From: Bispira polyomma
Taxonomy: Eukaryota
Direction of reading: 5' to 3'
Length of the DNA stretch: 64,000 bases
NCBI GenBank assembly: GCA_965649765.1
Contig: OZ287750.1
Span: 101,060,001 to 101,124,000, forward strand
Every line of letters starts with the position of its first letter. Within the stretch, counting starts at the first letter, position 1. Position numbers and translations under genes: made by a program. The notes beneath the pieces are model-generated. The model was not told the DNA's origin and did not search any database. It worked only from the letters and a program-made list of their open reading frames with translations. Below are positions 235 to 48,332 of this stretch, in pieces.

Positions 235-809
235 CTTTGTGAATGGAGCCCCAGACTGCGAGAACTACAGCAAGCAAACAAGTCAGGTACGTTCTGCTCT
301 CAACAGGGAGGTCAGGACACAATTTGGGTGAAACTCCAGGTCCCCTTGCCTCAAAACTTTTTTGGGGCGGTAATAACAAGGCCTGAATGTCATATGATTC
401 ATTATCCATGGCCCAGTGAGTGGCTGGGTTTAGTTCCATCATCAGAGAAAAGACAAACATGGAAATTAAAAATCAAATGCTCGAATATTTGACCGATTTA
501 ATGGAGGACTCTCAAGATTTCTCTGGGGTGGCTGCAAAAGGAAGCCATGGAGTGTTGTCATGTAAAATGGAAGAGGGGTAAGAAAAGCTCATGCTCAGAA
601 AATCTTGGGGCAAACCTCGGTCTCAGGGTAACCCAAGAGAAATAGTAAGAACTCCATCCCATGTAAATTTTAACAGAAGGGTTCCTGTGCCCAGAAAGAG
701 GGCCATGAGACCAAGGGGAAATTATATGCTCGCATATGTGCTAACTGCCATCTAACGCTCTTACCCACACAATACTCCAGAAAGAACAACTGTACAAAAA
801 AACGAATAG
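235..809 (+). pseudogene. gag of element A (5' part missing)
   Basis: Homologous by eye to gag 43814..44707; ends AAA AAC GAA TAG at 798-809. Confidence 0.8.
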
Positions 810-3105
810 GTCACTCCTGTACTGCAGTGCCAACATTTTCACATTTAAAAAATAATGTTCAAAATGTAAACACCAGTAATGTAAATGTACTAAACAGTTG
901 TGTAAAAATGTGGATGTCAATGTTTATACTAAAACTAGATGTTGTGTACATGTAAATGGTGTCAGTGGAAATTGGTAAAACGTATGCAAACATATATTGT
1001 AAAAACACAAGTAGTTTGATCAAAAAGAAAAGGCACCCTGTACCTCCAGTTGTCATCCATCAAAATTCAATGTTAAAAAGCGCCAGTAAGGTAGCCATTG
1101 TGGAAATGTACATAAATTGTGTGGTCAAAAAGTATTTAGGCCGCGTTTATACATTTGTGAAAAAGAAGTACATAATGTGATTTCAGCATAGAATCAATAA
1201 ATTGGGAGGGATATTGTTACCCACACACAAATCCAAGGTGTGAACACCTCAACAACGCTCACAACAGGTTTGCACCTCTTCTGTGCATTATTAAAAGGGA
1301 GATGGTAAGCTGACACCAAAAATGACACACTATCAAGGAAAAAAACCTTAAGGTTAGCCCACACTGTCACGGCCACAAACAACCAAAAGGTTGGTAAGCC
1401 ACAAACAAGGGTATATAGTGTGGTGCCTAACCCAGACAAATATGATTTAGCGCTCCATGCAAGGCACAAAAGTAAAGAACTTTGGCTTCATTCCTCTGGG
1501 TGATTTCACCATCCATGTGTTTGATATAAAAAACAGCACTTTTGGTATTTAAAACATTTTAAAAAAAATCAAAAATTCTAAACTTCCAAATTTTTGGGGG
1601 AACATTTTTGGGGGAACCGCAGCTAAGAGCTGCCAAATGGGATTTCCATTTGCCAGGTTATTGGCACAAACAACAATTGTTCCTAACCTTTTAAATAAAG
1701 TAGAAACTCACAAATCAGCAATTGACTACCCAGACGATTTTAAGGCATATTTGGATGAAGAGTTAAAATTTTGGGTCATGTTGGGCCCCTATGCAGCTTC
1801 CCCATGTAAGGACTTGCACGTCTTGCTTTTCATGACCCGGAAAAAGTCAGGGCAGCCCATCGAAGGGTGATAAATGACCTTCGTTTCCGCTAAGGAAATT
1901 CAGTTAATGCTGCTGTAGTGAAAAACCAGTATCTGTACACCTCTTTCGTCTTGACCTTACCCACAGTAGGCACAATTACTCAAGAAATACGTCAACTAGG
2001 ACAGAGGTCACTATTATAAAAGACAGACATCAGCAGGGCTCTCCGTCATGTAAAAATTGACCCCATCGACTATAAGCTTTTGGGACTGAAATTAGATAAG
2101 TACTTTGTTGATACATGTCTCCCCTTCGGTTATCTACATGGAAGTACCATTTTACAGTGTGTGAGTGACGCAGTGCGTTTTATCATGCAATGTCACGGCT
2201 GTGATATATTGATAATATTATTGGCAATAGCTTAAACTCCAAAATTCAGAATTTGTTTGACTTACTGCATTCCATCCTACATGAGCTCGGCTTTGATATT
2301 AGCAAAAAAAAAAAGATTGTATGTCCCAGCATGTGGTCTGTCTTGGTGTACTTATAGGCACTGAGAATTGCACAGTTTCAGTCCCTCATGCAAAATTGTA
2401 GGAAATCATTGCCCTATGTAAAGTATGACAAGGTAAGCGTACTTGCAAAAACGGGACCTACAGTCAATCCTAGGTAAACTACTATATATGTGTGTAAGTG
2501 TCTATAGCAACATCCTTAATAGAATGTTAGAAGTACTAAGGTCAGCCTATAGTGCACATATTATTAACTTAGGAATTGACTTCTACAAGACCTCAATTTG
2601 TTTTGCCAATTTTTACCAACTTTTAACAGCAAAGCCTTCTTTGACGGCTTGCATAGAACTTGATGCCTGCCTAGAAGGCCTAGGGGCCGTTGTAATGGTG
2701 AGGTGTACAAAACAAAAAACAAATTCTGAAGGGATATAGCAGTTATCATATAACCCACCTCGAAATGTTGGACATATTAGTCGCTGGTAGGCTCTGGAAG
2801 CACCAATAGAGTGGTAGGTGTTTGCTAATACACTGCGATAACGAAGCGGTAGTTACAATACCTAACTCGGGTAGAAACCAAGACCATACCTTGGCCGCTA
2901 TGTCCAGGAATATATTCATGGAGACGGCAATGAAAATCACCAGCTTCAGCACTAGCCATATACAAGCTAAAACAATGTGGTAGCAGACCTCTTATTCAGA
3001 TGGTACATGTACCCAGATAGTCATAGTAGGTTAGCTCACCACATACTTCAACCCAAGTGGTTGCAGGTGGGTGACAGTGCCCTAAGTATAAGTTAGTCTA
3101 TTTAA
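797..3105 (+). pseudogene. pol (linker + RT + RNase H) of element A
   Basis: Fragments 1637..1870 and 2443..2739 plus intervening motifs; ends TCT ATT TAA at 3103-3105. Confidence 0.85.
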
Positions 3106-3111
3106 TTGCAG

Positions 3112-4158
3112 GTCTTTCTCTTTAGCTTACACAATTGGCACCAATGGCTGTCTCCAGGGCTCACCAAGCTTTCAGATCATCCACTCAAAAAGCATACACA
3201 TACATGTTTTTTCTTGCTTTCACCTGCTTTACAAAGGTTACAATACAAAATAATACTCCCTTAGTCATACACTCTTTTCTGGAACTTTTAGTCACAAGTA
3301 ATGTATCAAATTCCTCTCTTGTTACCTGTCAGTAAAAAGGTCAAAATGGTATTGTATGGCCTAGATGCATCCTGCTTTGCGGATCAGCACATTAAATATT
3401 ACCAAAAAGCAATAGTGCTAAACAAACCATTTAGAGCAAAACTTAAAAGTGTAATTGACATAACATTTCTCGCTCAAAAAAAAAAACACCGGTGATTCCA
3501 TCTATATGGGCCAGGTATTCAAGGCAGTATACCTGGTGTCATTTTATTCCTTCCTCAGAATATCTAACCTTCTCCCATATAGTGTAGCCTTGTACTCTCC
3601 CCTCCAACAACTAGCCAGGGGTGACATCTTGTTTGCATCTCCTGGCACCCACATTATTGTAAACTAGTCTCAGACCCTTCACTTAAGAGACACCATAAGA
3701 ATCATTAAGCTACCCCACCTGTGTGACCCTTTCCTCTGCCCTGTCAGGGCCATTAAAAATTTGTTGGTCATCACACCTAGTGCAAACAATTCTACTCTGT
3801 TCTAATTTAAGTGCAGTGCCAAATGGATGCCATTGATGGATACCAGAATTCCTAGGGGCCGTTGTAATGGTGAGGTGTACAAAAAAAATGGATGCCATTG
3901 ATGGATTTTAAGGTGAGAAGAAACCTTCAAGACATACTGTCCCATATACATTGCCAAAGTACCAACATAACCTTCCACACCTTCCAACGTTCGGATGCAA
4001 CCTATGCATTCAATCAAAACATCTCCATTCTGGATATACAAGCTCATGGCATCTGGACATATGACTATGTGTGGAGGTATATCAACCAAGATCACAATAG
4101 TTCCCACCAGGTGGCTCTGGACTTTAAATCGTCCCTCACCACAACTACTACTCACTAG
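3112..4158 (+). pseudogene. tyrosine recombinase of element A
   Basis: ORF fragments 3135..3335, 3301..3495 and 3892..4158 carry YR catalytic-region motifs. Confidence 0.9.
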
Positions 4159-5560: not shown

Positions 5561-7604
5561 TAAACTGAGAATAGTCATGTTTTTGTGTAGTCATTTGTAT
5601 TTTAAGTTATAATAGAATTTGGACAACTTTAGGTACCGATTAATCGCTCGATTACAATCCACCCATAATTGATTATCATGTTATTAACTGACTCCCAGCT
5701 CTAATATTTATAATATATATATCGGTTATACGGTACCACAAAATTCACTGTTCTGTATTTTTTCATTGCTTCTATGTACCACCATCTGAGTGTTGTAAAT
5801 AGGACAACCGTTACCACTAGGGGTTAATTATAGGACAACTGTTACCACTAGGGGTTAATTACAATATTGAATTCATTCAGTTTTCTTCCTAATGCAGTTC
5901 ACAATTTTTATTGAGGGTTGTGTCCTTGTTTTTGCACTATTCAATAATGTAAAGGCTTATGTTCTTGTTTTATACAGCACAACACAATGGTTGGTGCCTA
6001 CCACCAACAGATTTACACCCCTAGAGGACAATGGTTCCTATAATGGCAGCTTGGCCAGCGACATTATTGATACCAATACCTATAGTACTGACACAAACCC
6101 AGTAAAGCAGGGTATAGAACATCAATCTAGTATCTCTAGTACTTACAGTGGTCACAAACAGGCAAATGCGGATAAATATGATCTAGAATTGCAAGTAAAA
6201 CCTAAGACTAGGGATCTTATTAAGCAGGCACAGGATGTACCTCAATTCCAGCAGTGGGACGCCCAAAGCACGGATAAGTATGGTTTTATTCCTTTAGGTG
6301 AACTCCAGCTTCCCAAAACAGACAAACAAAATTAAGTTGGATGCTACATTGTTGAAATTACATAGCGTCATTAAAGATCAAAACTGCCCTAATTTTATGG
6401 GCCCTCAAATACAAATTGACTCGGAAATAAAACCAGACATTTGGCAAAAATATCTGACTGATTACTGAGTTAAACAATTACCCCTGGTAGTACGTTATGG
6501 ATTTCCGCTTGATTTTCAACAAAATAGTAAACTTTACCGTGAGGAACAAAACCACAAATCTGCGACTGATTATCCAGATGACGTTAAAGCTAAGTTAATT
6601 GAGGAAATGAATTCGGGGCTATGTTAGGTCCCTTTGAGGATATTCCAATTAAAAATTTGCATATCTCCCCCTTTATGACCAGGGAAAAACCTGGGGGGGC
6701 ACACAGAAGAGTTATTATTGGCAAATCTGTCAACTCAGCTGTGGCTAAGGATAAATCTTTCGATACCTTGTTTGTCCTCACTCTTCGAACTATTGATACT
6801 ATTTCCAGTAAAATTTCCAGTGACATGTCTTGGTGTATTAGTCAATACTGAAGATTTAACAGTCTCTCTGCTAGATGATAAACTAACAGACATTACAGCC
6901 CTTGTTCGGGACTGGCAAAACAAAAACACTTGCACCAAACGAGAACTTCAATCCCTCTTGGGCAAGTTGTTATATATTTCAAAATGTGTACGGGTTTTAA
7001 ATTGCATGCTCGATGTTCTTAGGTCTGTAGGTGTAAGTCAAAAGGTTCACCTGACCCATGAGTTTTACCAGGATGTAAACTGGTTTAAAAAGTTTTTACC
7101 AAAATTTAATGAAAAGACCTTTTTTAAGCATGACCCAACCACTGATTGCATACAACTAGACGCCTGCCTCAAAGGGATGGGGGGCGATGTAACAATGAAG
7201 TATATGAATATCCGATTCCCCTGGGCTACCTTGATCTTACCATAGTCCATCTCGAAATGCTGAATATCCTCGTGGCTATTAGGTTATGGAAGTCAACCTG
7301 GGCAGGAAAACGGTTAATACTCCAATGTGACAACACTGCTGTGGTCACAATTCTCAATTCTGGTAAAACCAAAGATTTAACTCTGGCAACAATTACCCGG
7401 AACATTTTTATGGAGGTGGCCTCTGTTGATATCAGTCTTAAAACCATCCATTTATTAGGGAGACTTAAGACAGTGGCCGACTTGCTTTCCAGGTGGCATC
7501 TCACCACAGATAATGACAAAAAGTTATTAGAATTAGTAAATAATCCCAGGTGGGCTAAAGTCAAGGCCACTATGTTAGACATAGACTGGTCTATCAAATT
7601 ACAG

Positions 7605-8586
7605 ATATACCCTCCCAGTTAAGAATGATTACTACACAGGCCTCATACAGAACTCACCAAGCTTTCAGACCAGCCACCGAGAGGGCATATACAAATATGT
7701 TTGGGCTCTTCTTGGCCTTTTGCAGTTTTGCTCAAGTCAGACCACAGCATATTACACCCTTAATCATTTTGGCATTCTTCTAGTAGTAAACCACGTGTCC
7801 TCTCCTTCAATAGCTAATTACCTTTCTGCAATTAAAGCCAAAATGGCCCTGTATGGCCTTGATGTCACTGCCTTTGCAAACCCCCGTATTAAATATTACC
7901 AAAAAGCTCTAGTACTTAACAGCCCTTTCAGGGCTAAGATTAAGGCAATACTAGATATACCCCTTCTTCAACAAATAACTCAGGTTTGTGACAGTATGTA
8001 TATGGGCCTGGTGATTAAAGCAGTGTATCTCATAGCTTTTTTCTCCTTCTAAGAATATCAAATTGGGTCCCTCATGCTGTTGCTCAGTTCTCTTCTTTAG
8101 TCCACTTGGCCAGGGGGGACGTGCTCTTTGCCCCCCCTCCCCCCCCCCCCTGGTCTGCACATCATTATCAAATGGTCCAAAACCCTTCAGTCTAAAAAAA
8201 TAGTTAAGGTTCTAAAGACTCCAACCCTGAGTGGTTCCCCTTTGTGTCCAGTGGCAGCCACTAGGGTCTTATTACCAATCACCCCGGGACACAAAAACTC
8301 TCCTTTGTTTCAATATAAAAAAGATCAAAAATGATATCCCATGATAGATACTCAAGTTAGAAAGAACCTCACCTTAATACTTACCCGACTGGGTATTCAG
8401 TAATCTTCAATTTCCTTCCACACCTTCCGTCGTTTGGGTGCCACATTGGCCTTAAACAACAATGTGCCAATTCAAGACATCCAAAGTCATGGTACCTGGA
8501 CGTCGGATTGTGTGTGACAGTATATAGTGCAGGACCACAATGCTTCTGAATGTAGCCCTTACCTTTACATACTTTTACACTATTAA
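7605..8586 (+). pseudogene. tyrosine recombinase of element B
   Basis: HQAFRPATERAY start, FFSFLRISN, KWSKT, LCPV, HTFRR, HGTWTSDCV. Confidence 0.9.
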
Positions 8587-8928: not shown

Positions 8929-9768
8929 TCTCAGTATGTAAATAACTATTAGATATAACATAGATAACTATATGTGTATGTACATGGACCACAGATATAT
9001 TTACACTTGCAGATGGGTGGAGAGCCTAACTCCCAGTCATAGTAATCTTGTGTTATTCTATATGTACAAACATGTCATAGTAGAAAGTCCAATCAGGTAG
9101 AATTTTTAAAGTCTACCTGTAGAAACTCCAATTGAACTTTCTACCAGTAGAAAGTGCAATTCTGTTTGTTATAAGAAAAAAAATCGAATTGTATTTTACA
9201 TTACTGGCTCAATACTCTTTTTGATGATAATAATATAATAATATAACTTTGTCAAAGTGTCTTATATGTTACTGACAAATATGTCAGTAATCATAATAAA
9301 AATACTGGGAAACTGAAGCCAAAGAAGAATATATTTTGACTTTAAGCCTAAGCTCGAGACTGACTATACATCTGACCGTGTATGTACCAAGTATATTCTG
9401 ATTTCCTCTACCAGTTAACAACCCATCACCAAACTGCACAAGACTTGTTGAAAGTGTTTTAAACCAAAACTAAACTCAACCAACCATTGTATTTACACAT
9501 TACAGAAATGGATGGCCAGAGCAACTAACTTGCCCTCCTACCGTGCTGTGGCGAGTTTTAGCCATCTTGGGACGCCCTGTCATCATATATCCACTTTATT
9601 AATCACTGGTGATACAGGCCAGGGAATGGCTTGACTGGGCTATACAAATTTTGTAGTCATTGCTCGCAAAGCATGGCTAGTCAGTCGTGAAGTTGTAATA
9701 CCTTACGGTATTATATACTGTTTACCCAGATACACCAATCCTAGACCAGAACCTCTTTTACTTCACTA

Positions 9769-9895
9769 CCAATCAAATCCCTTAGCTTTAAGTCAATTTC
9801 CCGCCTTTTCTCACATTTGGTCATTATTAAGTTGCAAGTTAATGTAGCAACACCTTGAAATTACATTGGAATCGGCAAATAGAGCCGCCATATTG
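9769..9895 (+). promoter_or_regulatory. Candidate internal Pol II promoter of element C (CCAAT, E2F-like TTTCCCGCC, YY1-like GCCGCCAT)
   Basis: Motifs at 9769, 9797 and 9884; the same order recurs upstream of element E gag (18937, 18979, 19034). Confidence 0.4.
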
Positions 9896-10031
9896 GAAAT
9901 AACTGTTTGCGTGAAGGGAAACAAGCTTCTTTTATATTTATTAAACATTATTTTACCTTTTCGTTTAGTGATTTTAGTGAGTTTTAACTTTTCTCATCTT
10001 ATAGTGTGCCTTTTGTGTTGGATATCTTATT

Positions 10032-11491
10032 ATGGGCCGGGCGAAGAAGAAGACTGTGGCTTTGTGTTCACGCTGTAATTTTTCACATTCTCGACCAGTG
10101 GGTACTAGGTGTCGGCTGGCCATTCAAGACGCCACGTCGGACGCAGAAGCCAGCAGAGTTTTTTCTACTGAAGTCCATGGTGCAGACGTTGAAACCAGCA
10201 CGCTCAACTCCGTTGCTGACTCGAGTCACATTTCTGAAGATCACGTGAGTTTTGGTCAGTTCTACAAAGACGTTTTCACAGAGCAGCAGTCTATGATGAA
10301 AACACTAGTGTCCACGGTAGCTAAGTTACAGGAAGACGTATCCGACTTAAAGACGTCTCGTTCATCTTCCCCCCAGGTCTCGTCAACACCTCAGACGATT
10401 AGGCCTCAGAGGGCAGCTCCACCTAAGCTTCCAGCACCTTTTACACAAAACATGGCCTCTTCTTTACCATTTACTCAGAGCTTCCCTCAGCTTCAGAACC
10501 CGCCAGTGAACTACACAGGAGTCAACGATCTTCGTTCTCACGTTTCTCATGACACTTACCTGACACGTCACAACACTCAGTTCCCAGACACACGACCAGT
10601 TCATTTGCCACCTCAACGGGAGGGCTACACACAGGACCACGCTCAGAGGTCCCTACAGGATGCAATTCTGCCTACTCCAGATGTATTAAAGCAGTCCGCT
10701 ATGATACAGAACGAGGTTTCACAACGATTAGCCCGTTACGAGGCGTGGGCCACTGACAAATCGCTTCAAGGTAAGCTCAGTACTAAACGCAAATCTGGTC
10801 GCTACAATGTATCTGAAGTGTGTGTCACCGACCCAATGAAACGTTGGCCTAATGAAGCATGTTTTTCTGTGTGAGTAAGAAACGAGTTTCTTATGATGAG
10901 CTTACTGTGTCACAATTTGCTGCAGGTCAGTTGCAGAACAGCTTAGAAGTGAGAAGCCCTACTATTTCTTGCGCCATGTTAATCCAGTTAGCAGATACTT
11001 TAAAAGATGCTTCTAATATCTCCTGGCAGATAGCCAGAGGTTCGTATGCATGTAACATGCACGATGTGGAAGAGGGGCGCCTCAGCTGGGTAGACGAAAC
11101 TAGGTGGACAATGAACCGACTGTCCTATTCCCAGGCCTTAATTTCGAACGGCGCATCTTCAAATTCAACTTCCTCGAATTCCTCCTCGGCCACCGGAAAG
11201 CATGAGATGCCATGCAGGCACTACCAGAAGAATACGTGTCAGCATCAGAAAGACCATGAGGGCAACAACGCCATTTTTAAACACATCTGTGTCAATTGCT
11301 TTCGTTTGCATAAGAAGCACAATGCACATCCAGAATCCAAGTGTTTTAAACTTCACCGACCCCCCCCCCAGTGCCCGCAAATGTACCCCAATAGGGGTGC
11401 GGACTGTCGACAGTCACCACAGCCATTTGTTATGTACAGTATGTTAAACCGGATGTCGAGACTGCAGAGCAGGAGCATTCTGAGAGCATGA
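10032..11491 (+). pseudogene. gag of element C (frameshift near 10870)
   Basis: N-terminal CSRCNFSHSRPVGTRC, a coiled-coil-like segment, WP..C motif, and C-terminal CRHYQKNTC..H..HICVNC..H....C zinc-finger cluster. Confidence 0.88.
10768..10776 (+). other. Predicted splice donor in gag (AAG|GTAAGC, phase 1)
   Basis: Exon ends at 10770, the first nt of gag codon 247; equivalent sites at 286/287, 40709/40710, 44147/44148 and 60363/60364. Confidence 0.7.
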
Positions 11492-13929
11492 ACTTAAGAC
11501 ATGAGTATAATAAGCAAAATTTTGAGTTAGTTAATCAAAGGAACATTTTTATGTACAGTATGAGCTTTAGGGATGGACAGTTCTTAAATGATTGTTCTTG
11601 TGATGTATTCACGACAGATGGACAAAATAACGTCTCGTGTAGTAGCAACTCCGCCTTATGTTCTGTTGGTCACAAGTTATGTCCACCAAAAGTTCATGGC
11701 AGTAGTAATTTTATTGCAACCTCGTTTCTGGTTGATTTGTATAGTACTCACAGTTATGATGTCCTTAAAGGCCCAGTGTATTATATTGTTTGTAATGCTG
11801 ACTCCAGTGTGTCAGGTGCATACACTTGGGTTTTCTTTCAAGGTCAATGGTCTCTTCAGAGACATGACCTCTCTTTACAAGAAATGTGGCCCATCAGTTT
11901 GGTTTGCACAGGTTCTGTACCTGTTTTACTTAGAAACATTGCTTCATATACCAAGGTTCGACCTTTACCAAAACATAAGAAGGTCACCCATACCCGTACA
12001 AACATCAGTTCTTCTGATTATTATATTGCCATCATTGACAACATTTGTAGTCAAACCACTCAAACAACATACGACAAGCATATAAACGCACGTGTGGATG
12101 ACAAGTTCCTTTCGCGGAACCATACAATAACTGAGGACACACATATAGTAACCAACATTCCACAGGACGTTGTATTACAGAACAGTGACATACAGCACTC
12201 CCCCATAATGGAAGAAATTGTGAATGAGGACATTTTACTTACTGACCAAAGAACTTATGGCTTCATCCCTCACGGGAGAAACCATTTTAACTTCATAGGA
12301 CCAGACAGACAACAGGTAGACTTGACTTCTTATGATAAGTTAATTGAAGTAGCTGATATCATAAAGACCACTAAGGTATCAAACTACAGACAAGCGCGTT
12401 TTCCCATCAAAAGTGATCTCAATGTTCTCAATTGGAAGAAATACCTACTCGATTATCCGGATCAAATCGTTCTACAGTATGTAGAATTCGGGTTTCCTAT
12501 ATCTCTGTATGAGAGGGACAGATTGAAGGTCATAAATGTCAAAAACCATTTTTCCGCTATGGCATTTCCACAAGCCATTGACAAGTATTTCCTTACAGAA
12601 GTAGCTAAGGGCACCATAGTCGGTCCTATTTCAGGAAAACTTCACCCGGATATACATTGCTCACCTTTATTAACGGTACCTAAAGATATTGATCAGCGTC
12701 GTTTAGTTCTAAACCTTTCTCACCCCCTTGGACAATCTGTAAATGATTGTACAATTAAAAATAAATATGATAACGTCGCTTTTAACTTAAGGTTACCTAC
12801 CATTGATCAAATCACTACCCGTATTATTGAGTTAGGAACTAAGGCCACCTTAGCAAAAGTGGACATCGCTCACGCGTTTAGAAATTTAAGAATTGATCCT
12901 TTGGATTGTTTAAAGTTAGGTTACCTTTGGAAAAATAATTACTTCATTGATCTCAGTCTAACTTTTGGACTCACTCATGGCACGGCGGCCTTTATGATTA
13001 TTTCTGATTGTATTACTTACAGTATGAGACAGAAAGGATATATAGTCTACAACTATATCGACGATTTTATACTCATTGAGACTGAAGATAAGGCTGCCTT
13101 AGCTTACACTACTTTGCAACAAATCCTAGCAGACCTAAGTCTCCCTATTAACACCAAGAAATTAGTTCCCCCCAGTAAGCGTGTAACCTTCATGGGCATC
13201 ACTATTGACATAGACCTCCAAACACTCAGTATTGAACAAACTAAATTAAACTCTATATTTGACACATGTTTGGAATTTAAATACTTGCATAAAGTACGTA
13301 AACAGAAGTACCAGTCACTACTGGGAAAGTTGTTGTACATACAGCGTTGTGTGAAGAATTCTCGGATATTCATGAACAGAATGTTAACGTTATTACGGCA
13401 GTCTACTAGTAGTAAAACAGTATTTTTGACAAGTGACTTTCATAAGGATTTACAATGGTTTTTAACTTTTCTCAGACAATTCAATGGTACAACTAAGTAC
13501 ACATACCTGGATAGTTCACATGACGTGTCATTACAAGTCGACGCTTGTTTATCCAGAATCGGTGGCATATCTGGTTTAGAAGTGTTCAAAGCTCCTCTAC
13601 CATGCTTCCTTAAACAAACACTTTCCATTGTCCATTTCGAAATGGTCAGTATTCTCATAGCTTTCAAATTATGGGGTCACAAATGGAGTAATAAAAAGAT
13701 CAAGATACAATCAGATAACATGGCTGTGGTGTCTGTCGTACAGTCATCTAGAACCAGGGATCTGTGCCTTAAGGAATATTGACTTGGCAAAGACAATATA
13801 ATAGCAGACGCTCTATCTAGGTGGTTTGAATTAGACCATTTTGACAACATAATAAGACAGGAACTCTTACACAACTTCATCATGCATGACATACCCATTG
13901 AATTTTTTACCTTAGATACTTATGTGTAA
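11488..13929 (+). CDS. pol: N-terminal extension + reverse transcriptase + RNase H (small deletion/frameshift near 13775)
   Basis: KVDIAHAFR, LTFG, YIDD, YQSLLGKL, VDAC, SDNMAVV; C-terminal LGKDNIIADALSR continues in another frame to TAA 13927-13929. Confidence 0.92.
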
Positions 13930-13937
13930 TTTCAGAT
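13927..13937 (+). other. Predicted splice acceptor at the pol/YR junction (TAA TTTCAG|AT, phase 1)
   Basis: AG at 13934-13935; the same stop+TTNYAG layout at 3103-3111 and 47337-47345, and at 7596-7604 where the stop reads AAA. Confidence 0.7.
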
Positions 13938-14916
13938 CCTTCTGACCCAGCCTCCTCACTGATCAAAGGAGCTTTGAGACGGCTGAGACAAAGTCACAGA
14001 CCTAGGACACAAAGACAATATGACAGCCAGTTTAGACTTTTCTTGAGCTTCACAGTTTACTTTGATTTAAAGGAAACCTTCTGCTTTAACAGCGTTATAG
14101 CTTTTTTGGAATTTATGACACAAACAGGTGTCTCGTACAAAGTATTGAGTAATTACTTATCTTCCATTAGGCACAACACAAAAATTCTGAACATTCAGCA
14201 AACTGGTCTTTATGACCCTAGATTGCCATTATATTTGAGTTCATTACAACTCACTTCCAAATACACACCTCGGGTCAAAGGGGTTTTCGATTTGCACCAA
14301 TTACAACAGATTTCACAAGCTTGTAACCAGTTTCAATTTCCTGATTTATTCAGAACAGCTTTTTTGTTTGCTTATTTTGGTTTTTTACGCATTTCTAACC
14401 TGACCACCACATCAGGTCTCTCCTTTGATCCTACCAGACACCTGACAAGGGCTGACGTGTTGTTCGCCCCCCCAGGCATTCACCTCATATTAAAATGGAG
14501 TAAGACTAACCAAACCAGGAAAAACCCAGACATCATCACAATTACCAGAACTTTCAAACCCATGGCTCTGTCCTGTAAAGGCAGCCACTTCACTATTTCA
14601 CAAACACCCTCTCCCTCCTTCTTATCCATTACTGGCAAACCCACTAAATAAAGACCAGTGCCTCTCAGACTCTAGTTTAAGGCACACTCTTAGCTCTATC
14701 TTAACACAGTTAAAAATCCCAAAAGAGGGGCATTCCTTCCATTGCTTCAGGCACTCAGGTGCCTCCTTGGCATTTAATGCTAATGTTAAACTTCAGCATA
14801 TCCAAAAACACGGATGCTGGAAATCAGATGCTGTTTGGTCTTACCTTCAATCTACCTCTCATGCTTCCACAATTATTCCAACAACGTTCACATCCCTCGT
14901 CTCTTCTACTTTCTAA
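13936..14916 (+). pseudogene. tyrosine recombinase of element C (one frameshift near 14540)
   Basis: GFLRISNL, KWSKT, LCPV, HCFRHSG, HGCWKSDAVWSY; no ATG at the domain start. Confidence 0.92.
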
Positions 14917-17029
14917 TTTGGCTTTGGCATTTTAAAATTATTTCATCAAAAATAATTTTTTGTACAGTTGTATATAGAGACGAGTAGTTAGAACAAAAAT
15001 TATCCCAAACAGCATCTGATTCCTCACTCTCAATAACTATGACCTTTAAAGGTCACACTTACCCCAGGACAACATTAGTTCAATGTCACTCACAACTTAA
15101 ACGACTGATTATACAGGGCTATAAATTATCAAATTGGTCTCTCATTGACTAGTGGTTTGGAGTTTCTCGGTTCGAAGGGGGAGAGGGGAGCAATGCATGT
15201 ATCTGTGTCAGTAGAAAACTACAACAGGTATGATATTTTAAAAATAATTTTCAAATTTTAATAACATTGAATTGAAATTTACAATTACAGTAACATCTGT
15301 TACCTTTCAAGTTCAATGGTAAAAAAAATGCTAAAATTAATTGCCAGAGAAAACCTTCCACTTGATGTAGGCTTGAATGAGTACAATCCCGAATAAACAA
15401 TTCATAGACAGATGGAAGTAAGTGGGTGTTATTCTAGCATTACACACTACAAACGAATTTTTGTTCCAAAAAAGCTAAAAGCTCCCATTATGAAACCATT
15501 GTGTATATATATTATTATTATCAGCAGCAAACTTTTTTGTGCTTATTTTCTATTATTCAGATTCTAAGGCGCTAAGTTAAATGATAATCAAAATTCAAAT
15601 ATCGTAATTGATAAAAGTTATAAATTGATAAAATTATATATGTAAAAATAATACATACATTTAATGTAGTTAATCAATTTAAAACATACTATCTTCAAAC
15701 TAGAAAGCAAAAGAAAACAAACAATAAAACCTTGGGAAAGGAAAAGCCTGATGCTTCAATGTGCATGGTTACACTATATTTCCATGTGACCGTTAAGATT
15801 ATGATGGAGCTTGTGGATGTCTAATCCGTCATCCAAGAAATACAAAATGTGTGTCCACGAATGTGATGTATGTTATTTTTGCAGCTTGTGTAAATTTATC
15901 CAAATTCTGATCAAATTTTGCCATCTCCTAATACAGCCTCAACCAAAAAAAGAACTGTATAGTAAACCATCACTATTGCAGTTAATATATACTATAATGG
16001 TGGCAATCAAGACAAGGAGAAGTGTTCATTATAGAGAGGTGTTCACTCTTCAGAGGTGTTCACAATCAGAGGTTTTAACTAAACTGGAAATACTGATCCA
16101 CGAGTAATGTCTTTAAAAAGGTTTTTGTTGTCAAAATCTCTGCACCAGTGTATTGAGAAAAATGACAAATGTTTGTATAATAATTATTCCTGTTCTTTTT
16201 TTTTTTTTTTTTGTCCCACGGAAGTATAGCCCCAAAATTATTATTACTGAAACATCTATATATATCACCCCACGATTGATCTATCATCCTCTAAGGCACT
16301 CTCTCGCCAGAGTCAGTCCCACAACATAGCATTGGTCATCGTCATGTTCACACCATTCCAAAGGATGTCATATCCCCCAATGAACCTAGCAGCATTGGTA
16401 GAAACCAAAGTGGGGACTGTCCCACTACATATAATCACTAGGTTGCAGAAGATCAGAACGTTTTCGGTCAAAGCCACCTGATCGGTTTTCTCTAACACAT
16501 GCTTTCTCTTTTCTCTTCTATGAGGCATTAGTCAAGTCGCCTGATTGGTTCTCCTCTAAAACATGTTTTCTTTTTTTCTTTTCTTTCCTCTCAGCCATTA
16601 TTCATGTAGGTACTGGACAGGCAACACAGTAAAATCACTCTCCCTGTGCCCCTGTGGTAAACATATTAAACAATTAACACAATACTACAATATTGGCCAC
16701 TGCCACTATAATTGTGTAACACCACCATTGTGCTGTCATATCAGTTAGTGTCAACTTTTTTAGGTTTGAACAATGTTATGCCATTATGTTACACAATGCT
16801 ATCATATCTGATCTGATATTGTTATGCTTTTATACTAGTTTTACCTTTAAAACGCTTTTTTGTCACAGTCGCTTAGAAGTTAAGGTTATGTGTAGGTCAA
16901 AGCCAGGGACCAAAGATAGTAAAACATATTATGAGTATTTTATTACATGGTCGTTTATATATACATCTGTACATAAATATTAAAATATATATATTTTGTA
17001 TTACTGCCAAAAAAAAGTGAAACTAAAAG

Positions 17030-19373: not shown

Positions 19374-20416
19374 ATGGCACCTCGTGCTAATTACGATTGC
19401 AGGGCTGGTTAAAACAGTCATAAAAAGCCAATTGATAACTGCACATTTATAACTCAAACGGTGAACAGTGCTACTAGTGACATTTCCAGTGCGCGATTAA
19501 CACACGCATATTGGAGGAACTTAATGGGCTAAGTGAGAGAATGTCAGACATGGAAAAAAGAATAGAAAAATCTGAAAATAGACAGTCAGTCGCTGGTAGT
19601 ATTAGTACGCCGTTAACTACTGCTACTATTTCATCAATTTCCACACTGGCTCCGCCCACGGTTCTTGTGCTTTCTACAGCCATGGCTACCTAGTCAACGT
19701 CGCTGACCACAGATGAGGACAACACGCTGGTCCCTACTTTCGCCACACTAAAGACCTCTCGGTACTTGTGACATGCTGTCGACTCTAGACTTTTGGATCT
19801 CGCAGTCCTTAATGAAAAAGGCAATTTCAAATCTCAGCCGGGTGGTAATGAAACAGTTTGGGTGAAACGCCAGGTGTCCTGGCCCCAGAATCATATTCTT
19901 GGTGGTACAAGTAAATCTCTAGTAACGTATGATAGCCTTTCTATGACTCAATGGGTTTCAGGGTTTTGTTTGTCAGAGATGAATGTAATATGGATGTGAA
20001 AAATGCTATGCTAGACTATGCGCAAGATTTGATGGAGGACTGTCATGACTTCTCTTGGCAAGCGGCTAAGGGCAGTCATGCAGTCCTCCTATGTAAGATG
20101 AAAGAGTGTAAAGTTTCATGGGATGAAACCTCAAAAATTGATAGGATACGCAGGGCTCATGCCCAAAAAATTGTAAATAATGTGCACTCAAACTATTCCG
20201 GTTCTGCTAGATGTCAAAAATACAGAAAAGGGGGTTCCCTGCAGATATTTCAAGAAAGGATCGTGTCCCCATAAGGTTGACCATAAAACCAAAGGCCAGA
20301 CATACTTAGATGTCTGTGTCACTTGTCTGTCTTTCGGAAAATCCTTTCCACATGCTTCAAAAGATTGCCACAGAACTACAAAATGTCCTGAGAATGTCGG
20401 TACAAAAAACGAATAA
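19374..20416 (+). pseudogene. gag of element E
   Basis: Fragments 19511..19693, 19793..19999, 19951..20274 and 20180..20416; ends ACA AAA AAC GAA TAA. Confidence 0.88.
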
Positions 20417-38846: not shown

Positions 38847-39053
38847 CTTTGTTAGTTCTGTGCCGAATTGGTTGGTGCCGAGTTGACCTAAATACACTTT
38901 TGTTAGTTCTGTGCCGAATTGGTTGGTGCCGAGTTGACCTAAATACACTTTTGTTAGTTCTGTGCCGAATTGGTTGGTGCCGAGTTGACCTAAATACACT
39001 TTTGTTAGTTCTGTGCCGAATTGGTTGGTGCCGAGTTGACCTAAATGCACTTT
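38847..39053. repeat. Tandem repeat, 51 bp x 4
   Basis: Unit TTTTGTTAGTTCTGTGCCGAATTGGTTGGTGCCGAGTTGACCTAAATACAC; near-identical copies with no spacers. Confidence 0.95.
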
Positions 39054-39094
39054 CCTCTTTTCTGAGTTCAGGGTTTGGTGGGCTAACATCCTTG

Positions 39095-40375: not shown

Positions 40376-42863
40376 ATGGGGAGAAGGAAAGTTACCAAAA
40401 CTGCTGATAGTGTTGAGCAAGTTATGGACGATAGTGCTAGCAGTACAGGGGATAAGATTACTCAGCAACAGGTGAACCTCCGTATACTAGAGGAGCTGAA
40501 GACATTGGGTGAAAGAATTGGTTCTATTGAGCAGAAAGTGGAAGACAAGCAGCCTCAGGGAGCCTGTAGGGGACAGACGTCAGCCTTTGAACACACTGAT
40601 GAAACTGTCATACCGACTGTACAAACTCTGAAGTCCTCGGCAACATTACAAGCACAGGTCGATGCCAGATTGACTGAACTGCAGAAACTCAACTCACAGG
40701 ACTTAACAGGTAGATTTAAGTCACAAAGGGGGGGGGGGGGGTTCAATCGAGGTCCTTTGTAAAAAACAAGTAAAATGGCCAAACTGCTATATATTGGGAG
40801 GGTCTCAGAGAGATAGAGTTTCGTATAACAATTTGACTGTTTTCCAATGGGTGGCTGGCTTTGTCCAAGCGGCCCAGGAGGAGTCTGATCCTGAGATCAG
40901 AAACATTATGTATGAATATTTAGGCGATCTCATGGAGGACGCTCAAGACTTCTCCTGGCCCGCCGCCAAAGCCAGCCATGCCGTTCTACTCTGTAGAATG
41001 GAGGAAGGTCGGGTAACATGGACAGAGTCCGAAAAGTTAGACAGAATTAGGAGGGCTAATGCCCAGAGGGTGGGAGTTAAGAAAAGTAGTCAAGATAGTA
41101 GTACCAAAACTAAAGATTTGCCTTGTAAATTCTACCAAAATGGCACATGTCGGAGGTTCAAGGACCATGAGCACAATGGCCAGCTTTATAGACACATCTG
41201 TGGCAGCTGTTATACTCAGAATAAGGAACATAACCACCCTAGTAAAGACTGTAGGTCGAAAAACAATTAAGGGCATTCAAAAAACGAGTAAGGCACTGCT
41301 TGGCAGTGCCTACACAGTATAAACAGTCCTTCAAAATGGCAGACACACCTGTGCGGGGGGTAACTTTTGTTAATTCAAAATTTCATACTCAAACTCCAAA
41401 ATCAGGGCAATGTAACACTGCCCTTAGTAAAAACACTGAACCCAACGTCTGGGATAAAGTTGGTACCATAAATGGCAGTACACGGTTTGGTAGTGTTAGG
41501 TATTGGCCCCAAGTAAAAAAAGTTGCAACATGTGTATCACATTGTGCACCTACGTTAAAACATAATAAAAACTTGAGAGGTGGGCAAACATGAAAAATGT
41601 ATAGCTCCATATTATGCAAAAGGTACTTCACTTGTTCACAGAACTAACGGGACCCTCTGCCCAATTAACTTTAATCAGGTGAACAGTGCCATTGTTGAAT
41701 CTAGTGAAATCACCCCAAGTATTGACGGCAAAACCCTACCAGTTTACACAAGTCTCAACAATACTGAATCACATATTAAAGGCTTTGCCAGTGACAGCTG
41801 TGATATTACGCAGCATAAACAGGTGGATAACAACACAGGTGTTGGTCATAATAGACAAAACATGGGGGATTACAAACAGAAGGTAAGCATTTCTGTCCAA
41901 AATAACAACAGAAAAACTACAAACCTTACAGATAATACTCCCCTTAAAAACATGCGTTCCTTTGAAAATACAAGTGAATCAGCCTGTACCCTTGATTTGG
42001 TCTTACCAAATGTAGAAACACAAATGGGTAAAAACATAAAAGATCAGTATGACAATTGTACAGATCTAAACACCATTTGGGATGTGAATTGGCATTCAAA
42101 ATACAGTGGAAATTTGTTTCTAAAAAATAAACAAAAACAAAGGCTGGAACAAGCCAAGGGAGTTGATGAATTTGAATTATTCAAAAGACAACAAAACTTC
42201 ATGTTTGGGTTTATACCACTGTCGAACCTTAAGCACAAACCAAGTGGTGGTGAATCATATACCCCCATATGTCATGATCCACCACTGGCTCACAAGATAG
42301 TTAAAGTGTCGGGTAAGCCCAACTTTATGGGGGCTCGACTACCTGTGGCAAGTCAGCTGCATGTCACCGAATGGCAAAAACGTTTAGTGGGCTATTGGGA
42401 TTGGCAGCTCCTTGAATTCCTCAAATATGGGTTTCCATTAGATTTTTCAACAAATATTGACTTAGTGAAAGGGCTAACCACCCCTCTGCAGTACAATATA
42501 AGGACCATGTAGAAGCATACTTGAAAGAAGAACTTAGTTTTGGTGCCATAATAGGTCCATTTGACGACTGTCCCATGCAAAACCTACATTTTTCACCCTT
42601 CCTTACTAGGACTAAACCTGACTCAGAAAAACGTCGCGTTATTATTGACCTGAGTTGGCCAGAAGGTCATTCAGTAAACGCTGGTGTTAGTAAAGATGAA
42701 TATTTAGGCACAGACTTTATACTCTCCTTTCCCTCTGTTGACGACATTGTCAGCCAGGTCAAAGCATTTGGTAGAGGTTGTCATCTATACAAGTTGGACA
42801 TTAGTCGTGCATTCAGGCATATAAAACTAGACCCTTTCGACTATAATTTGCTAGGGCTTCACC
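40376..42863 (+). pseudogene. Truncated duplicate of element H gag and 5' pol
   Basis: ORFs 40376..40762, 40794..41270, 41300..41593, 41580..42512 and 42521..42871 duplicate those at 43814-46300. Confidence 0.92.
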
Positions 42864-43813: not shown

Positions 43814-44707
43814 ATGGGGAGAAGGAAAGTTACCAAAACTGCTGATAGTGTTGAGCAAGTTATGGACGATAGTGCTAGCAGTACAGGGGATAAGATTACT
43901 CAGCAACAGGTGAACCTCCGTATACTAGAGGAGCTGAAGACATTGGGTGAAAGAATTGGTTCTATTGAGCAGAAAGTGGAAGACAAGCAGCCTCAGGGAG
44001 CCTGTAGGGGACAGACGTCAGCCTTTGAACACACTGATGAAACTGTCATACCGACTGTACAAACTCTGAAGTCCTCGGCAACATTACAAGCACAGGTCGA
44101 TGCCAGATTGACTGAACTGCAGAAACTCAACTCACAGGACTTAACAGGTAGATTTAAGTCACAAAGGGGGGGGGGGGGTTCAATCGAGGTCCTTTGTAAA
44201 AAACAAGTAAAATGGCCAAACTGCTATATATTGGGAGGGTCTCAGAGAGATAGAGTTTCGTATAACAATTTGACTGTTTTCCAATGGGTGGCTGGCTTTG
44301 TCCAAGCGGCCCAGGAGGAGTCTGATCCTGAGATCAGAAACATTATGTATGAATATTTAGGCGATCTCATGGAGGACGCTCAAGACTTCTCCTGGCCCGC
44401 CGCCAAAGCCAGCCATGCCGTTCTACTCTGTAGAATGGAGGAAGGTCGGGTAACATGGACAGAGTCCGAAAAGTTAGACAGAATTAGGAGGGCTAATGCC
44501 CAGAGGGTGGGAGTTAAGAAAAGTAGTCAAGATAGTAGTACCAAAACTAAAGATTTGCCTTGTAAATTCTACCAAAATGGCACATGTCGGAGGTTCAAGG
44601 ACCATGAGCACAATGGCCAGCTTTATAGACACATCTGTGGCAGCTGTTATACTCAGAATAAGGAACATAACCACCCTAGTAAAGACTGTAGGTCGAAAAA
44701 CAATTAA
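43814..44707 (+). CDS. Gag-like protein (297 aa) of element H
   Basis: Coiled-coil-like N-region, FKSQRGG, WPNCYILGG, CKFYQNGTC....DH...HICGSC...H....C. Confidence 0.9.
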   Translation: MGRRKVTKTADSVEQVMDDSASSTGDKITQQQVNLRILEELKTLGERIGSIEQKVEDKQPQGACRGQTSAFEHTDETVIPTVQTLKSSATLQAQVDARLTELQKLNSQDLTGRFKSQRGGGGSIEVLCKKQVKWPNCYILGGSQRDRVSYNNLTVFQWVAGFVQAAQEESDPEIRNIMYEYLGDLMEDAQDFSWPAAKASHAVLLCRMEEGRVTWTESEKLDRIRRANAQRVGVKKSSQDSSTKTKDLPCKFYQNGTCRRFKDHEHNGQLYRHICGSCYTQNKEHNHPSKDCRSKNN

Positions 44708-44715
44708 GGGCATTC

Positions 44716-44748
44716 AAAAAACGAGTAAGGCACTGCTTGGCAGTGCCT
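44716..44748 (+). promoter_or_regulatory. Predicted -1 ribosomal frameshift signal (A_AAA_AAC, 5-nt spacer, 9-bp hairpin)
   Basis: AAAAAAC 44716-44722 is in the gag frame; AGGCACTGC-TTG-GCAGTGCCT 44728-44748; the -1 frame enters ORF 44737..45030; homologous sites at 797-831, 20404-20416 and 41279-41311. Confidence 0.7.
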
Positions 44749-47339
44749 ACACAGTATAAACAGTCCTTCAAAATGGCAGACACACCTGTGCGGGGGGTAA
44801 CTTTTGTTAATTCAAAATTTCATACTCAAACTCCAAAATCAGGGCAATGTAACACTGCCCTTAGTAAAAACACTGAACCCAACGTCTGGGATAAAGTTGG
44901 TACCATAAATGGCAGTACACGGTTTGGTAGTGTTAGGTATTGGCCCCAAGTAAAAAAAGTTGCAACATGTGTATCACATTGTGCACCTACGTTAAAACAT
45001 AATAAAAACTTGAGAGGTGGGCAAACATGAAAAATGTATAGCTCCATATTATGCAAAAGGTACTTCACTTGTTCACAGAACTAACGGGACCCTCTGCCCA
45101 ATTAACTTTAATCAGGTGAACAGTGCCATTGTTGAATCTAGTGAAATCACCCCAAGTATTGACGGCAAAACCCTACCAGTTTACACAAGTCTCAACAATA
45201 CTGAATCACATATTAAAGGCTTTGCCAGTGACAGCTGTGATATTACGCAGCATAAACAGGTGGATAACAACACAGGTGTTGGTCATAATAGACAAAACAT
45301 GGGGGATTACAAACAGAAGGTAAGCATTTCTGTCCAAAATAACAACAGAAAAACTACAAACCTTACAGATAATACTCCCCTTAAAAACATGCGTTCCTTT
45401 GAAAATACAAGTGAATCAGCCTGTACCCTTGATTTGGTCTTACCAAATGTAGAAACACAAATGGGTAAAAACATAAAAGATCAGTATGACAATTGTACAG
45501 ATCTAAACACCATTTGGGATGTGAATTGGCATTCAAAATACAGTGGAAATTTGTTTCTAAAAAATAAACAAAAACAAAGGCTGGAACAAGCCAAGGGAGT
45601 TGATGAATTTGAATTATTCAAAAGACAACAAAACTTCATGTTTGGGTTTATACCACTGTCGAACCTTAAGCACAAACCAAGTGGTGGTGAATCATATACC
45701 CCCATATGTCATGATCCACCACTGGCTCACAAGATAGTTAAAGTGTCGGGTAAGCCCAACTTTATGGGGGCTCGACTACCTGTGGCAAGTCAGCTGCATG
45801 TCACCGAATGGCAAAAACGTTTAGTGGGCTATTGGGATTGGCAGCTCCTTGAATTCCTCAAATATGGGTTTCCATTAGATTTTTCAACAAATATTGACTT
45901 AGTGAAAGGGCTAACCACCCCTCTGCAGTACAATATAAGGACCATGTAGAAGCATACTTGAAAGAAGAACTTAGTTTTGGTGCCATAATAGGTCCATTTG
46001 ACGACTGTCCCATGCAAAACCTACATTTTTCACCCTTCCTTACTAGGACTAAACCTGACTCAGAAAAACGTCGCGTTATTATTGACCTGAGTTGGCCAGA
46101 AGGTCATTCAGTAAACGCTGGTGTTAGTAAAGATGAATATTTAGGCACAGACTTTATACTCTCCTTTCCCTCTGTTGACGACATTGTCAGCCAGGTCAAA
46201 GCATTTGGTAGAGGTTGTCATCTATACAAGTTGGACATTAGTCGTGCATTCAGGCATATAAAACTAGACCCTTTCGACTATAATTTGCTAGGGCTTCACC
46301 TAGACCAGGTGTACATTGATACTTGCTTGCCCTTTGGTTATAGGCAAGGGAGTTCATTGTTTCAGAGAATCTCTGACAGTATAAGATACATGATGTCTTC
46401 AGAGGGCTTCCCTATCATAAACTACTGTGATGATCTGATAGATTTTCGTGTCCCTAGTCAAGCAAAAATTGCATTTAACACGTTGTACAATCTCCTGGGC
46501 AAGTTAGGTTTTGATATCAGCGCAAAAAATATCATAAAACCTGATACAAAAGTCACCTGCCTAGGTATTGACATAGACACCATTCAAAGTACCACTTCCA
46601 TTCCAATAGAGAAGCTCCAAAAAATCAAAGCTTTGTGTGCAAATTGGGGTTCTCCTACTACATGTCATAAAAACAAGTTGCAGTCCCTGCTGGGATCTCT
46701 CCTCTATGTCTCAAAGTGCGTAAAGTCATCTTGATTTTTTCTGAACCGCATACTAGATGTCCTAAGGTCAGCTTCCGGCAGTAAAAGTATTTCCCTCACT
46801 GTTGAGTTCTACAAGGACCTCTCATGGTTTAGGCAATTTCTTCACAAATTTAACGGGGTAACTTTCTATGACCAGAGACCCATTGATCATGAAATGGCCT
46901 TGGATGCTTGTCTCACGGGGATGGGGGGGCCACTGGGGAAATAACATCATGTGGGAGTTTCTGGGGTGGATAGTGAGCTCGGAATTGTGCATCTTGAGAT
47001 GCTAAATATCTTGGTGGCTCTGAGATTATGGGGTAAATCATGGGGAAACAAGAAGGTACTTATCAGGTGCGATAATCAGGCGGTGGTTAGCGTTCTATCC
47101 ACAGGAAAAATAAGGGACAGTTACCTTTCGGCTTGTGCTAGAAATATAGCCATGGAACTAGCTCTAAACAACATAGAGGCCAAGTTTATTCACATGTTAG
47201 GCAAACTGAATTGCATAGCTGATCTGTTTCGCGTTGGCATGGGTCTACTGCCCAGTATGAGAAACTGTATGCTAGCATTCAACAACCAATTTGGTTACCT
47301 GTACACAGAAACCTCTTATATGTAAAATGGGATATTTAA
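44716..47339 (+). pseudogene. pol of element H
   Basis: ORFs 44737..45030, 45017..45949, 45958..46734 and 46951..47325 with RT and RNase H motifs. Confidence 0.92.
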
Positions 47340-47345
47340 TTATAG

Positions 47346-48332
47346 GTTCAGCTTTGGGTACTATGCTGGCTGCCAGAGCTGTGAACAGGCTGCCTGGGGC
47401 TTTCAGACCCGCTACTACCGGAGCCTACCAGTCTATCTTTAGAACCTTTATTGCTTTTTCTACATTTATTCAGGTAGACATCTTGTCCATACAAGTTTCA
47501 AATATACTAGCATATTTAGAGTTTTTGCCTTTTAATAAGGCCTCTCCTGCTGTTATGGCTAACAACCTCTCAGCCATCAAGTCATGTGTTAGCTTATATG
47601 GCTTACAAATTAACGCTTTCTCAGATCCTAGGATAAAACTGTTTCACAAGTCTGTCATGATTAACAGACTCCTTGTTACTAAATTCAGAGCTTTCATTGA
47701 CATTGATACTCTCTAAAAAATCATCAGTTCGTGTGACTGTACCTTTATGGGTCAAATATTCAAAGCAATTTACTTGGTTGCTTACTTTTCTAAGAATGTC
47801 CAATCTAGTTCCATCTTCTGTGAACCAATTTGATCCCTCAAGGCACCTCACCAGGCAGGACATCTTCTTCCACCCACCTGGGGCTCATATCCTCATTAAA
47901 TGGTCGAAAACCATTCAAAATAGGGACATGGTCAAATTAATAAAAATTCCATCATTATTTCCATCCCCTCTTTGTCCTGTAACGGCCCTTAAAGTGGTGC
48001 TTAGAGAGTGTCCTTCTGGTCTCAATCAACCATTGTTTTTGCTAAAGTCTAAAGCTGGTTGGACTTCAGCAACTGATGGCAAAGTTAGAGCTCACCTTAA
48101 GACAGCAATCACCTTGGCTGGCTTTCCCAATGATCTTTTTACCTTTCACGCATTTCGCCGTTCAGGTGCTACTGCTGCTTTCAACAATAACGTTGACCTT
48201 GCCCACATTCAACAGCATGGTACCTGGACGTCGGAGTGCGTGTGGCAATACATCATGCAAAATCCGGCCACTGGGCATCAAGTGGCTCTGGCTTTCTAAA
48301 AATCGCTTACTCCTACTGCCCCTACTTCCTAG
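47346..48332 (+). pseudogene. tyrosine recombinase of element H
   Basis: FLRMSNL, KWSKT, LCPV, HAFRRSG, HGTWTSECVWQY. Confidence 0.93.

Follow-up and report, generated by a model that had tools for sequence, protein, structure and literature searches.

Conserved, phase-matched splice sites predict a spliced Gag-tyrosine recombinase fusion in Ngaro-like retrotransposons of Bispira polyomma

The stretch of DNA analysed here (the window) comprises 64,000 nucleotides of Bispira polyomma (assembly GCA_965649765.1, eukaryotic, 1.035 Gb; contig OZ287750.1, positions 101,060,001 to 101,124,000 of the forward strand) and holds a cluster of mostly decayed, Ngaro-like tyrosine recombinase (YR) retrotransposons. 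At least nine copies or remnants of such elements (A to I) are present, together with minus-strand pieces near 17.0-17.9, 35.5-36.1 and 36.9-37.1 kb. In these elements and their relatives a phase-1 splice donor lies in the middle of gag and a phase-1 splice acceptor at the start of the recombinase frame, and we consider it probable, from the conservation of the two sites, that alternative splicing removes the Gag core and all of pol to give a protein in which the N-terminal part of Gag, Gag(N), is joined to the YR. The two sites are a real and well-conserved feature; that they give rise to a spliced Gag(N)-recombinase fusion is likely, though not proven. Such a fusion had been proposed in a sequence-only reading of the window; all of the sequences quoted there are present at the positions given, and the proposal survived every sequence test, the support being that of conservation. 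The coordinates of all features are collected in Table 1.

The copies of family C, to which element C belongs, are too young to say much about selection and distant families were therefore sought. Eight regions were fetched around recombinase matches in the same genome, six of them with gag, pol and a YR start, and a metagenome scan gave 15 loci, including two near-complete close relatives (L037 and L039) and a distant clade (L040-L047). No relatives were found among 157 pattern matches in viral contigs. Pol identities were mostly 30-45%, with closer pairs at 80% (L031/L036), 59% (L042/L043) and 55% (H/L033), and the donor-bearing elements occupy at least seven deep branches in a tree of this analysis' own sequences only. 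When the splice-site phases were tabulated over these additional families, the splice-site reading held in six further elements of the same genome and in the metagenome elements.

A YAG in phase 1 was found 45-57 nt before the YR motif (A-x-R-P-x-T or equivalent, used as the anchor) in all 18 elements counted, the distance being 57 nt in 11, 54 nt in four, 48 nt in two and 45 nt in one of them, whereas 8.4% (for two positions) or 19.9% (for five positions) would be expected by chance. Three near-duplicates of L033, L040 and L047 (L032, L041 and L051, all with the acceptor present) were left out of the count, as were L034, L044, L046, L048, L050 and window remnant D, in which the 5' end of the YR is missing, interrupted or decayed, and L049, a GC-rich integrase without retroelement context. 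In family C the acceptor is kept in 20/20 copies and has 25 exact matches in the genome. The gap between pol stop and acceptor is 6, 12, 16, 19, 24, 31, 44, 161 or 334 nt and covers all three frames; given that this gap varies while the distance to the YR fold is constant, the acceptor is tied to the YR and not to pol. The sequence-only reading had placed the acceptor, as TTNYAG, exactly after the pol stop, which is correct for the pol-stop positions of A, B, C and H and does not extend to the other elements as a general rule. In five elements (L037, L039, L040, L042 and L043) the acceptor is non-coding. Database gene calls for related recombinases translate the acceptor region, and 47/65 of them carry [SAVLPIT][GDE] at positions -18/-19, the residue pair expected from NYA-G, compared with at most 11/68 at other offsets (a few spurious motif matches were counted as misses).

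Synthesis of the recombinase as a Gag-Pol-YR protein, by read-through or frameshifting at the end of pol, would fit the close-clade elements, in most of which the YR starts 6-24 nt from the pol stop, and recoding is apparently in use already between gag and pol. However, the frame relation between pol and YR differs between families, 334 nt with in-frame stops separate the two in L037 and 161 nt in L043, and the T-run before the stop varies between family C copies, which makes this explanation highly improbable.

For the donor, a fixed window of 25 codons before the motif KS[GQ] was examined in all gags long enough to be tested, and AG/GTA (the slash marks the cut) was present in phase 1 in 10/10 of them, exactly once in each and never in phase 0 or 2. 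The background of this pentamer is 12/8881 codons, or 3.3% per window, and the chance of the observed recurrence is about 1e-9 even for six independent lineages. Excluded from this test were A, E and I, whose motif is decayed, together with F, the minus-strand remnant of gag at about 35.5-36.1 kb and L041-L043, which have no KS[GQ]; the donor anchors for A, L031 and L036 were picked by eye. Across 13 elements the donor has A at -2, G at -1, G at +1 and A at +3 in 13/13 and T at +2 in 12/13, so that the sites read AG/GTA in 12 elements and AG/GCA in one, in agreement with the consensus of intron donors. In family C the GTAAGC donor is kept in 19/20 copies, the 20th being without the region. The donors claimed earlier for A, C, H and I all read AG/GTA; E has GC, and the site in F (30423) was discarded as support, having CT at +1/+2 in a decayed gag remnant. 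The donor had also been assigned to one homologous gag position. It is indeed conserved ahead of KS[GQ], right after a conserved helix pair, and it does not occupy one alignment column, lying 3-14 codons before the K.

Similar motifs could be left by conservation of the protein, for example of a Gly-Lys turn in Gag, or by shared ancestry without splicing, and the donor does always encode Gly; in the distant clade it lies within a conserved KGT found in only three related elements. Yet the conserved bases are synonymous while the flanking residues differ, as had been noted earlier and was borne out in the 13 elements: the residue before the Gly varies (S, Q, T, L, K) though -2 is always A, and the residue after it varies (K, T, N, R, I) yet its codon always begins with A. 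The Gly codon itself is GGT in 12/13 elements (35% expected), and the joint chance of these synonymous choices in nine lineages is about 4e-9 if they are independent. Control glycines elsewhere in gag, such as that in KSG, are encoded by all four codons; even in this small sample GGT and the A before it come close to 100%, whereas codon usage sets the choice at other conserved glycines. Apart from the donor, synonymous sites are saturated, with third-position identity at shared fourfold residues of 205/713 (29%, in an alignment including frameshifted copies). Together with the non-coding position of the acceptor in the five elements named above, this leaves protein-level conservation or ancestry with very little probability.

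The two sites match in phase. The length of exon 1 is 1 mod 3 and the acceptor offset 2 mod 3 in 10/10 elements computed, with predicted introns of 2248-3441 nt and a Gag part of 111-259 aa. The earlier frame arithmetic was reproduced, giving 739 coding nt (246 aa plus 1 nt) and an intron of 3165 nt in C, and 334 nt (111 aa plus 1 nt) and an intron of 3198 nt in H. One alternative splice is the simplest account of a phase-1 donor in mid-gag that is conserved independently of coding, together with a phase-1 acceptor where a recombinase without ATG begins. An acceptor 5' of a downstream open reading frame (ORF) would also be accounted for by spliced-leader trans-splicing, in which the acceptor receives a leader and a separate YR mRNA is released. 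A non-coding leader gives no start codon, however, and the first Met lies inside the recombinase fold in C, L037 and L039; trans-splicing moreover needs neither a fixed phase nor a donor in gag, and we find it scarcely credible.

Under the proposed cis splice, one transcript would give three proteins. The unspliced RNA would be translated into Gag and, depending on the family, into Gag-Pol by stop read-through or -1 frameshifting. A fraction of the RNA would be spliced by the host spliceosome from the phase-1 donor in mid-gag to the phase-1 acceptor at the first recombinase helix, and the product would be a single protein consisting of the first 110-260 Gag residues and an entire Cre-type YR. 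We infer from the two sites that the RNA is indeed spliced, that the mid-gag donor is joined to the YR acceptor and that the resulting message is translated.

Both predicted cuts fall at structural boundaries. When exon 2 of C was modelled alone, starting from the acceptor, the predicted local distance difference test score (pLDDT) was 90.5 and the first helix comprised residues 5-18. The model matched Cre in Foldseek over its whole length (template modelling score 0.71-0.73 over about 328 columns), and the catalytic residues R-K-H-R-W-Y of Cre-type tyrosine recombinases are conserved. The first Met of the family C frame (codon 71 of 337) lies about 60 residues inside this fold, and a start there would remove the first three helices. 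On the Gag side, exon 1 of C is predicted to encode a zinc knuckle, a coiled coil, a linker and a helix pair (from the alignment and from a model of the homologue in L037), and the intron would span the helical core of Gag, the C-terminal Cys/His array and all of pol. The L037 Gag model, with a mean pLDDT of only 66, has a helix at residues 117-138 with the donor at 137-138, followed by a low-confidence linker and then a well-predicted core; a fold search with Gag gave no clear match (best Z 5.6). The intron had been said to remove the zinc-finger half of Gag along with pol, which stands for the C-terminal array and pol and needs correcting for the N-terminal CxxC..H..C knuckle, which stays in exon 1 in 7/9 aligned gags. 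H and L030 are without this knuckle and it is thus not the essential part.

The donor lies after the coiled coil and helix pair rather than close to the ATG, which suggests some function for the retained part of Gag. The likeliest one, which is speculative and to which we give about even weight for and against, is docking of the recombinase onto Gag assemblies through the retained coiled coil and helix pair. By analogy, such docking might do the job that the Gag-Pol polyprotein does for the integrase in long terminal repeat (LTR) elements. Alternatively, the basic N-terminus and zinc knuckle might serve in nucleic-acid binding or nuclear import. YR elements have no protease (PMC3783388; this and the papers below are cited for the parts of them that were covered), so a Gag(N)-YR fusion would probably stay uncleaved. 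A broader proposal, for which our confidence falls somewhat below even, is that in the Ngaro lineage, and perhaps in other YR retrotransposons, the 'third ORF', instead of being a gene in its own right, forms exon 2 of a gene for a Gag-recombinase protein. The enzyme would then exist only as a Gag(N) fusion docked on the particle by the coiled coil and helix pair, with a possible role for the zinc knuckle and basic N-terminus in binding nucleic acid of the element, and splicing would set the ratio of Gag to reverse transcriptase (RT) to YR in a retroelement without protease.

Several observations, in this paragraph and the next two, weigh against the splice. An upstream Met is present in 8/18 YR frames, at varying places between -8 and -79, and an ATG overlaps the TGA of pol in L029 and L035, which leaves room for reinitiation there. 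The YR might thus be translated from unspliced RNA by termination-reinitiation at such an ATG, or a subgenomic RNA might be translated from an AUG or a non-AUG codon, in either case with the splice-like motifs as by-products; several database gene calls do start with MIS[GD] or MIAG. On the other hand, 10/18 frames have no Met before the motif and the position varies in the others, consistent with the earlier claim that the YR frames share no positionally conserved ATG. The ATGA overlap follows from a terminal Ile codon ATA before the TGA, and unspliced translation accounts for neither the fixed YAG nor the gag donor. We consider it very unlikely; given the variable gap and frame and the missing Met in 10/18 frames, neither read-through, nor frameshifting, nor a conserved ATG of its own can explain the family as a whole.

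Upstream of the acceptor, pyrimidines make up a modest 0.40-0.70 of the 20 nt in close-clade elements, compared with 0.75-0.85 in the distant clade. Other good phase-1 donors, scoring 5-6 out of 7, occur in single gags (L031, L036, L030 and L035). In the distant clade (L041-L043) the candidate donor AAA GGT ACG is common to three elements and in phase 1 and lies about 30 alignment columns further into gag; it is weaker evidence, and this shift in position also counts against the proposal. Both sites could therefore be real without being partners, the YR acceptor being joined to another phase-1 donor (in a short leader or host exon) and the mid-gag donor serving another acceptor or regulation, for instance U1 binding, which has a role in the control of termination in plant Copia elements (PMC5580714). 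This is unlikely, as the mid-gag donor is the only donor common to all families, the phases match in every element computed, no conserved acceptor was found before RT in 11/12 anchorable pol regions, and no obvious conserved one precedes the gag ATG in 13 leaders inspected by eye.

No fused Gag-YR protein was found among the 120 listed of 187 near-length matches, among 150 listed representatives (15 long or N-terminally extended candidates inspected) or in searches for longer proteins. Given that the protein collections look like gene calls on genomic contigs, this test is weak. The single long match, P0270, was rejected, being a predicted RT/RNase H-YR model without the YR N-domain and without Gag. 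Exact-match patterns detected 25 unspliced acceptors in family C, and 55 acceptors and 159 donors in the L033 family, but no retroposed spliced copy in either. If no intron-less copy exists, the spliced RNA would not be the template for reverse transcription (for example through a packaging signal in the intron), or it is rare or absent. Three sequencing runs, at 13-21x (X1 and X2) and about 50-85x (X3), cover non-element DNA and so look genomic; the 15 listed of 124 joints do not include the predicted one, which is no evidence either way.

The elements are Ngaro-like YR retrotransposons by the definitions in PMC4157794. Ngaro elements are defined by gag, RT/RNase H and YR, by split direct repeats arranged A1-B1-A2-B2 and by the lack of a methyltransferase (PMC4157794, PMC9210276). 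Here gag, RT/RNase H and YR are ordered on one strand with no long overlap, and split direct repeats A1-B1-A2-B2, with the internal pair downstream of the YR, were found in 15/20 family C copies. All five Pol proteins scanned against Pfam end soon after RNase H and gave matches to RT and RNase H families and one weak DUF only, with no methyltransferase match. DIRS1-like identity was rejected, the repeats being direct and no terminal inverted repeats appearing in a self-comparison, and so was PAT-like identity, for which the split repeats are present but the methyltransferase match in Pol is not. A search for DIRS1-type elements in the same genome, for comparison, gave no Dam match, in a weak test with one candidate scored. 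With Ngaro-like elements of the order DIRS as described, our elements share the gene order on one strand, the repeats downstream of the YR and the lack of a methyltransferase, and they differ in that the literature, in the parts covered, gives three separate ORFs whereas ORF1 and ORF3 here appear to be two exons of one gene.

Introns have been reported in some fungal YR elements. The splice predicted here would be a new form of a known strategy; no such report on this group was found in the literature searched. No description of a Gag-YR splice was found in the parts covered of that literature, which included PMC7192593, PMC6681497, PMC9341512, PMC4157794, PMC3266345, PMC9210276, PMC3783388, PMC12477816, PMC5633606, PMC10496198, PMC4495291 and PMC6431247, with two central papers by Goodwin, Poulter and Butler, supplements and Repbase notes outside its scope. 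The stems 'splic' and 'intron' are absent from the main text, as far as covered, of PMC3266345, PMC9210276 and PMC3783388 (supplements outside scope), and 'splicing', in the parts covered on DIRS-1, refers to a reporter intron (PMC7192593). The closest analogue is the SD' RNA of murine leukemia virus (MLV), in which a donor internal to gag is joined to an acceptor in pol, placing N-terminal Gag in frame with integrase sequence; of its products P50 and P60, P50 is packaged in virions (PMC10496198). The likeness lies in the internal gag donor and in the fusion of N-terminal Gag to sequence of the integrating enzyme. However, P50 is accessory and contains no more of a DDE integrase than its last 116 residues, the working integrase coming from Gag-Pol, whereas the fusion predicted here would carry the whole recombinase and represent the principal source of it. 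The SD' RNA is also retroposed, in contrast to the absence of junction matches in our two families. In the plant Ty1/Copia element EVD, conserved alternative splicing of the element's own RNA (shGAG) sets a protein ratio (PMC5580714), but that splice yields Gag alone with early termination, whereas the one predicted here would skip pol and fuse Gag(N) to a downstream enzyme. Compared with Cre itself, exon 2 is alike over its whole length at about 15% identity and would carry a long Gag-derived N-terminal extension.

DIRS and Ngaro elements make up 2.1% of the zebrafish genome and YR retrotransposons are widespread (PMC9341512). The YR literature, in the parts covered, gives no route for the translation of the third ORF or for the arrival of its product at the cDNA; a conserved Gag(N)-YR splice, if true, would answer both. 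The annotated YR ORFs of these elements would then be wrong at their N-termini, and biochemical studies of these eukaryotic Cre-like integrases ought to be done with the fused protein. This would also be a retroelement whose integrating enzyme depends on splicing, with host control of splicing as an added lever on its activity.

The junction of gag and pol takes two forms. In C, L030, L035, L037, L039, L042 and L043 the two genes are in one frame across a single stop (TAG or TGA), a candidate for read-through. In H and L033 they overlap, with A AAA AAC, a 6-nt spacer and a strong hairpin (window 44712-44747, duplicated near 41275-41310; L033:2237-2272) that keeps its stem between the two while the loop differs, which is likely to be a -1 frameshift signal. 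From this anatomy, related families would appear to switch between read-through and frameshifting. A hairpin follows the stop in family C (window 11392-11430), and no structure is common across families. Between the end of gag and RT (window 11395-12250 and homologues) the sequence is poorly conserved and of variable length, with about 50-380 codons ahead of the first conserved RT motif; it has no Pfam match and is shortest in the distant clade.

Table 1. Positions of predicted splice sites and other features in the window (slash, predicted cut)
Feature	Position	Strand	Remarks
Element A donor CAG/GTACGT	284..292	+	cut after 286; decayed copy
Element A pol stop and acceptor	3103..3113	+	cut after 3111
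Element B acceptor	7596..7606	+	cut after 7604; pol-stop position reads AAA
Element C, Ngaro-like YR retrotransposon	9651..15107	+	boundaries set by 20 genome copies, 93-97% identity
Element C split direct repeat A1	9651..9862	+	recurs after B1 in 15/20 copies
Element C predicted exon 1, coding part	10032..10770	+	open frame of 739 nt; Gag residues 1-246 plus one base
Element C predicted phase-1 donor AAG/GTAAGC	10768..10776	+	cut after 10770; homologous donors in other families
Element C predicted alternative intron	10771..13935	+	3165 nt; GT...AG, phases match; prediction from sequence
Element C gag stop TAG	11392..11394	+	in frame with pol; read-through candidate
Element C pol (RT, RNase H)	11395..13929	+	Pfam RVT_1, RVT_3; this copy broken near 13782
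Element C pol stop TAA, then predicted phase-1 acceptor TTTCAG/AT	13927..13937	+	cut after 13935
Element C predicted exon 2, complete Cre-type tyrosine recombinase	13936..14916	+	frameshifted in window copy; pLDDT model, Foldseek
Element C split direct repeat B1	14925..15107	+	
Element E donor position AAG/GCAATT	19818..19826	+	GC variant or decay; YR of E missing
Donor in G, tandem duplicate of the 5' part of element H	40707..40715	+	cut after 40709
Element H donor CAG/GTAGAT	44145..44153	+	cut after 44147; gag ATG 43814; 111 aa plus 1 nt
Element H pol stop and acceptor	47337..47347	+	cut after 47345; YR to about 48299, broken
Element I donor CAG/GTATTT	60361..60369	+	cut after 60363; decayed gag

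In family C, 15/20 copies are arranged A1-ORFs-B1-A2-spacer-B2. The family has a gag of 453 aa followed by TAG and 863 in-frame pol codons, which are open in 5/20 copies. In the window copy gag, pol and YR are all broken and the final repeats (A2-spacer-B2) are absent; it ends at B1, as do five of the 20 other copies (L014, L015, L022, L023 and L027), which is what recombination between the two B repeats would leave. The 575-nt A2-B2 spacer at L016:7020-7595 is without a long ORF and has an apparent long imperfect inverted repeat. Another family C copy, L010, has as its neighbour a sequence similar to the L033-family frameshift hairpin, a hint that it may have inserted into a related element. 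A T-rich, acceptor-like tract ending in TAG lies at window 9930-10004, 27 nt 5' of the gag ATG of C, and is not clearly common to other families.

Among the other elements, no gag was found for B. A near-exact tandem duplication of about 3.44 kb (window 39420-42856 and 42858-46300) covers the 5' half of H and may be a recent duplication or an assembly artefact. At L041:939-3232 two copies lie in a tandem or nested arrangement, with no more than 300 nt from the YR of one to the gag of the next. The window also contains two successive in-frame ORFs of about 240 codons that are unrelated to the YR elements (51125-52564, minus strand) and a tandem array with a 51-nt unit (38797-39102).

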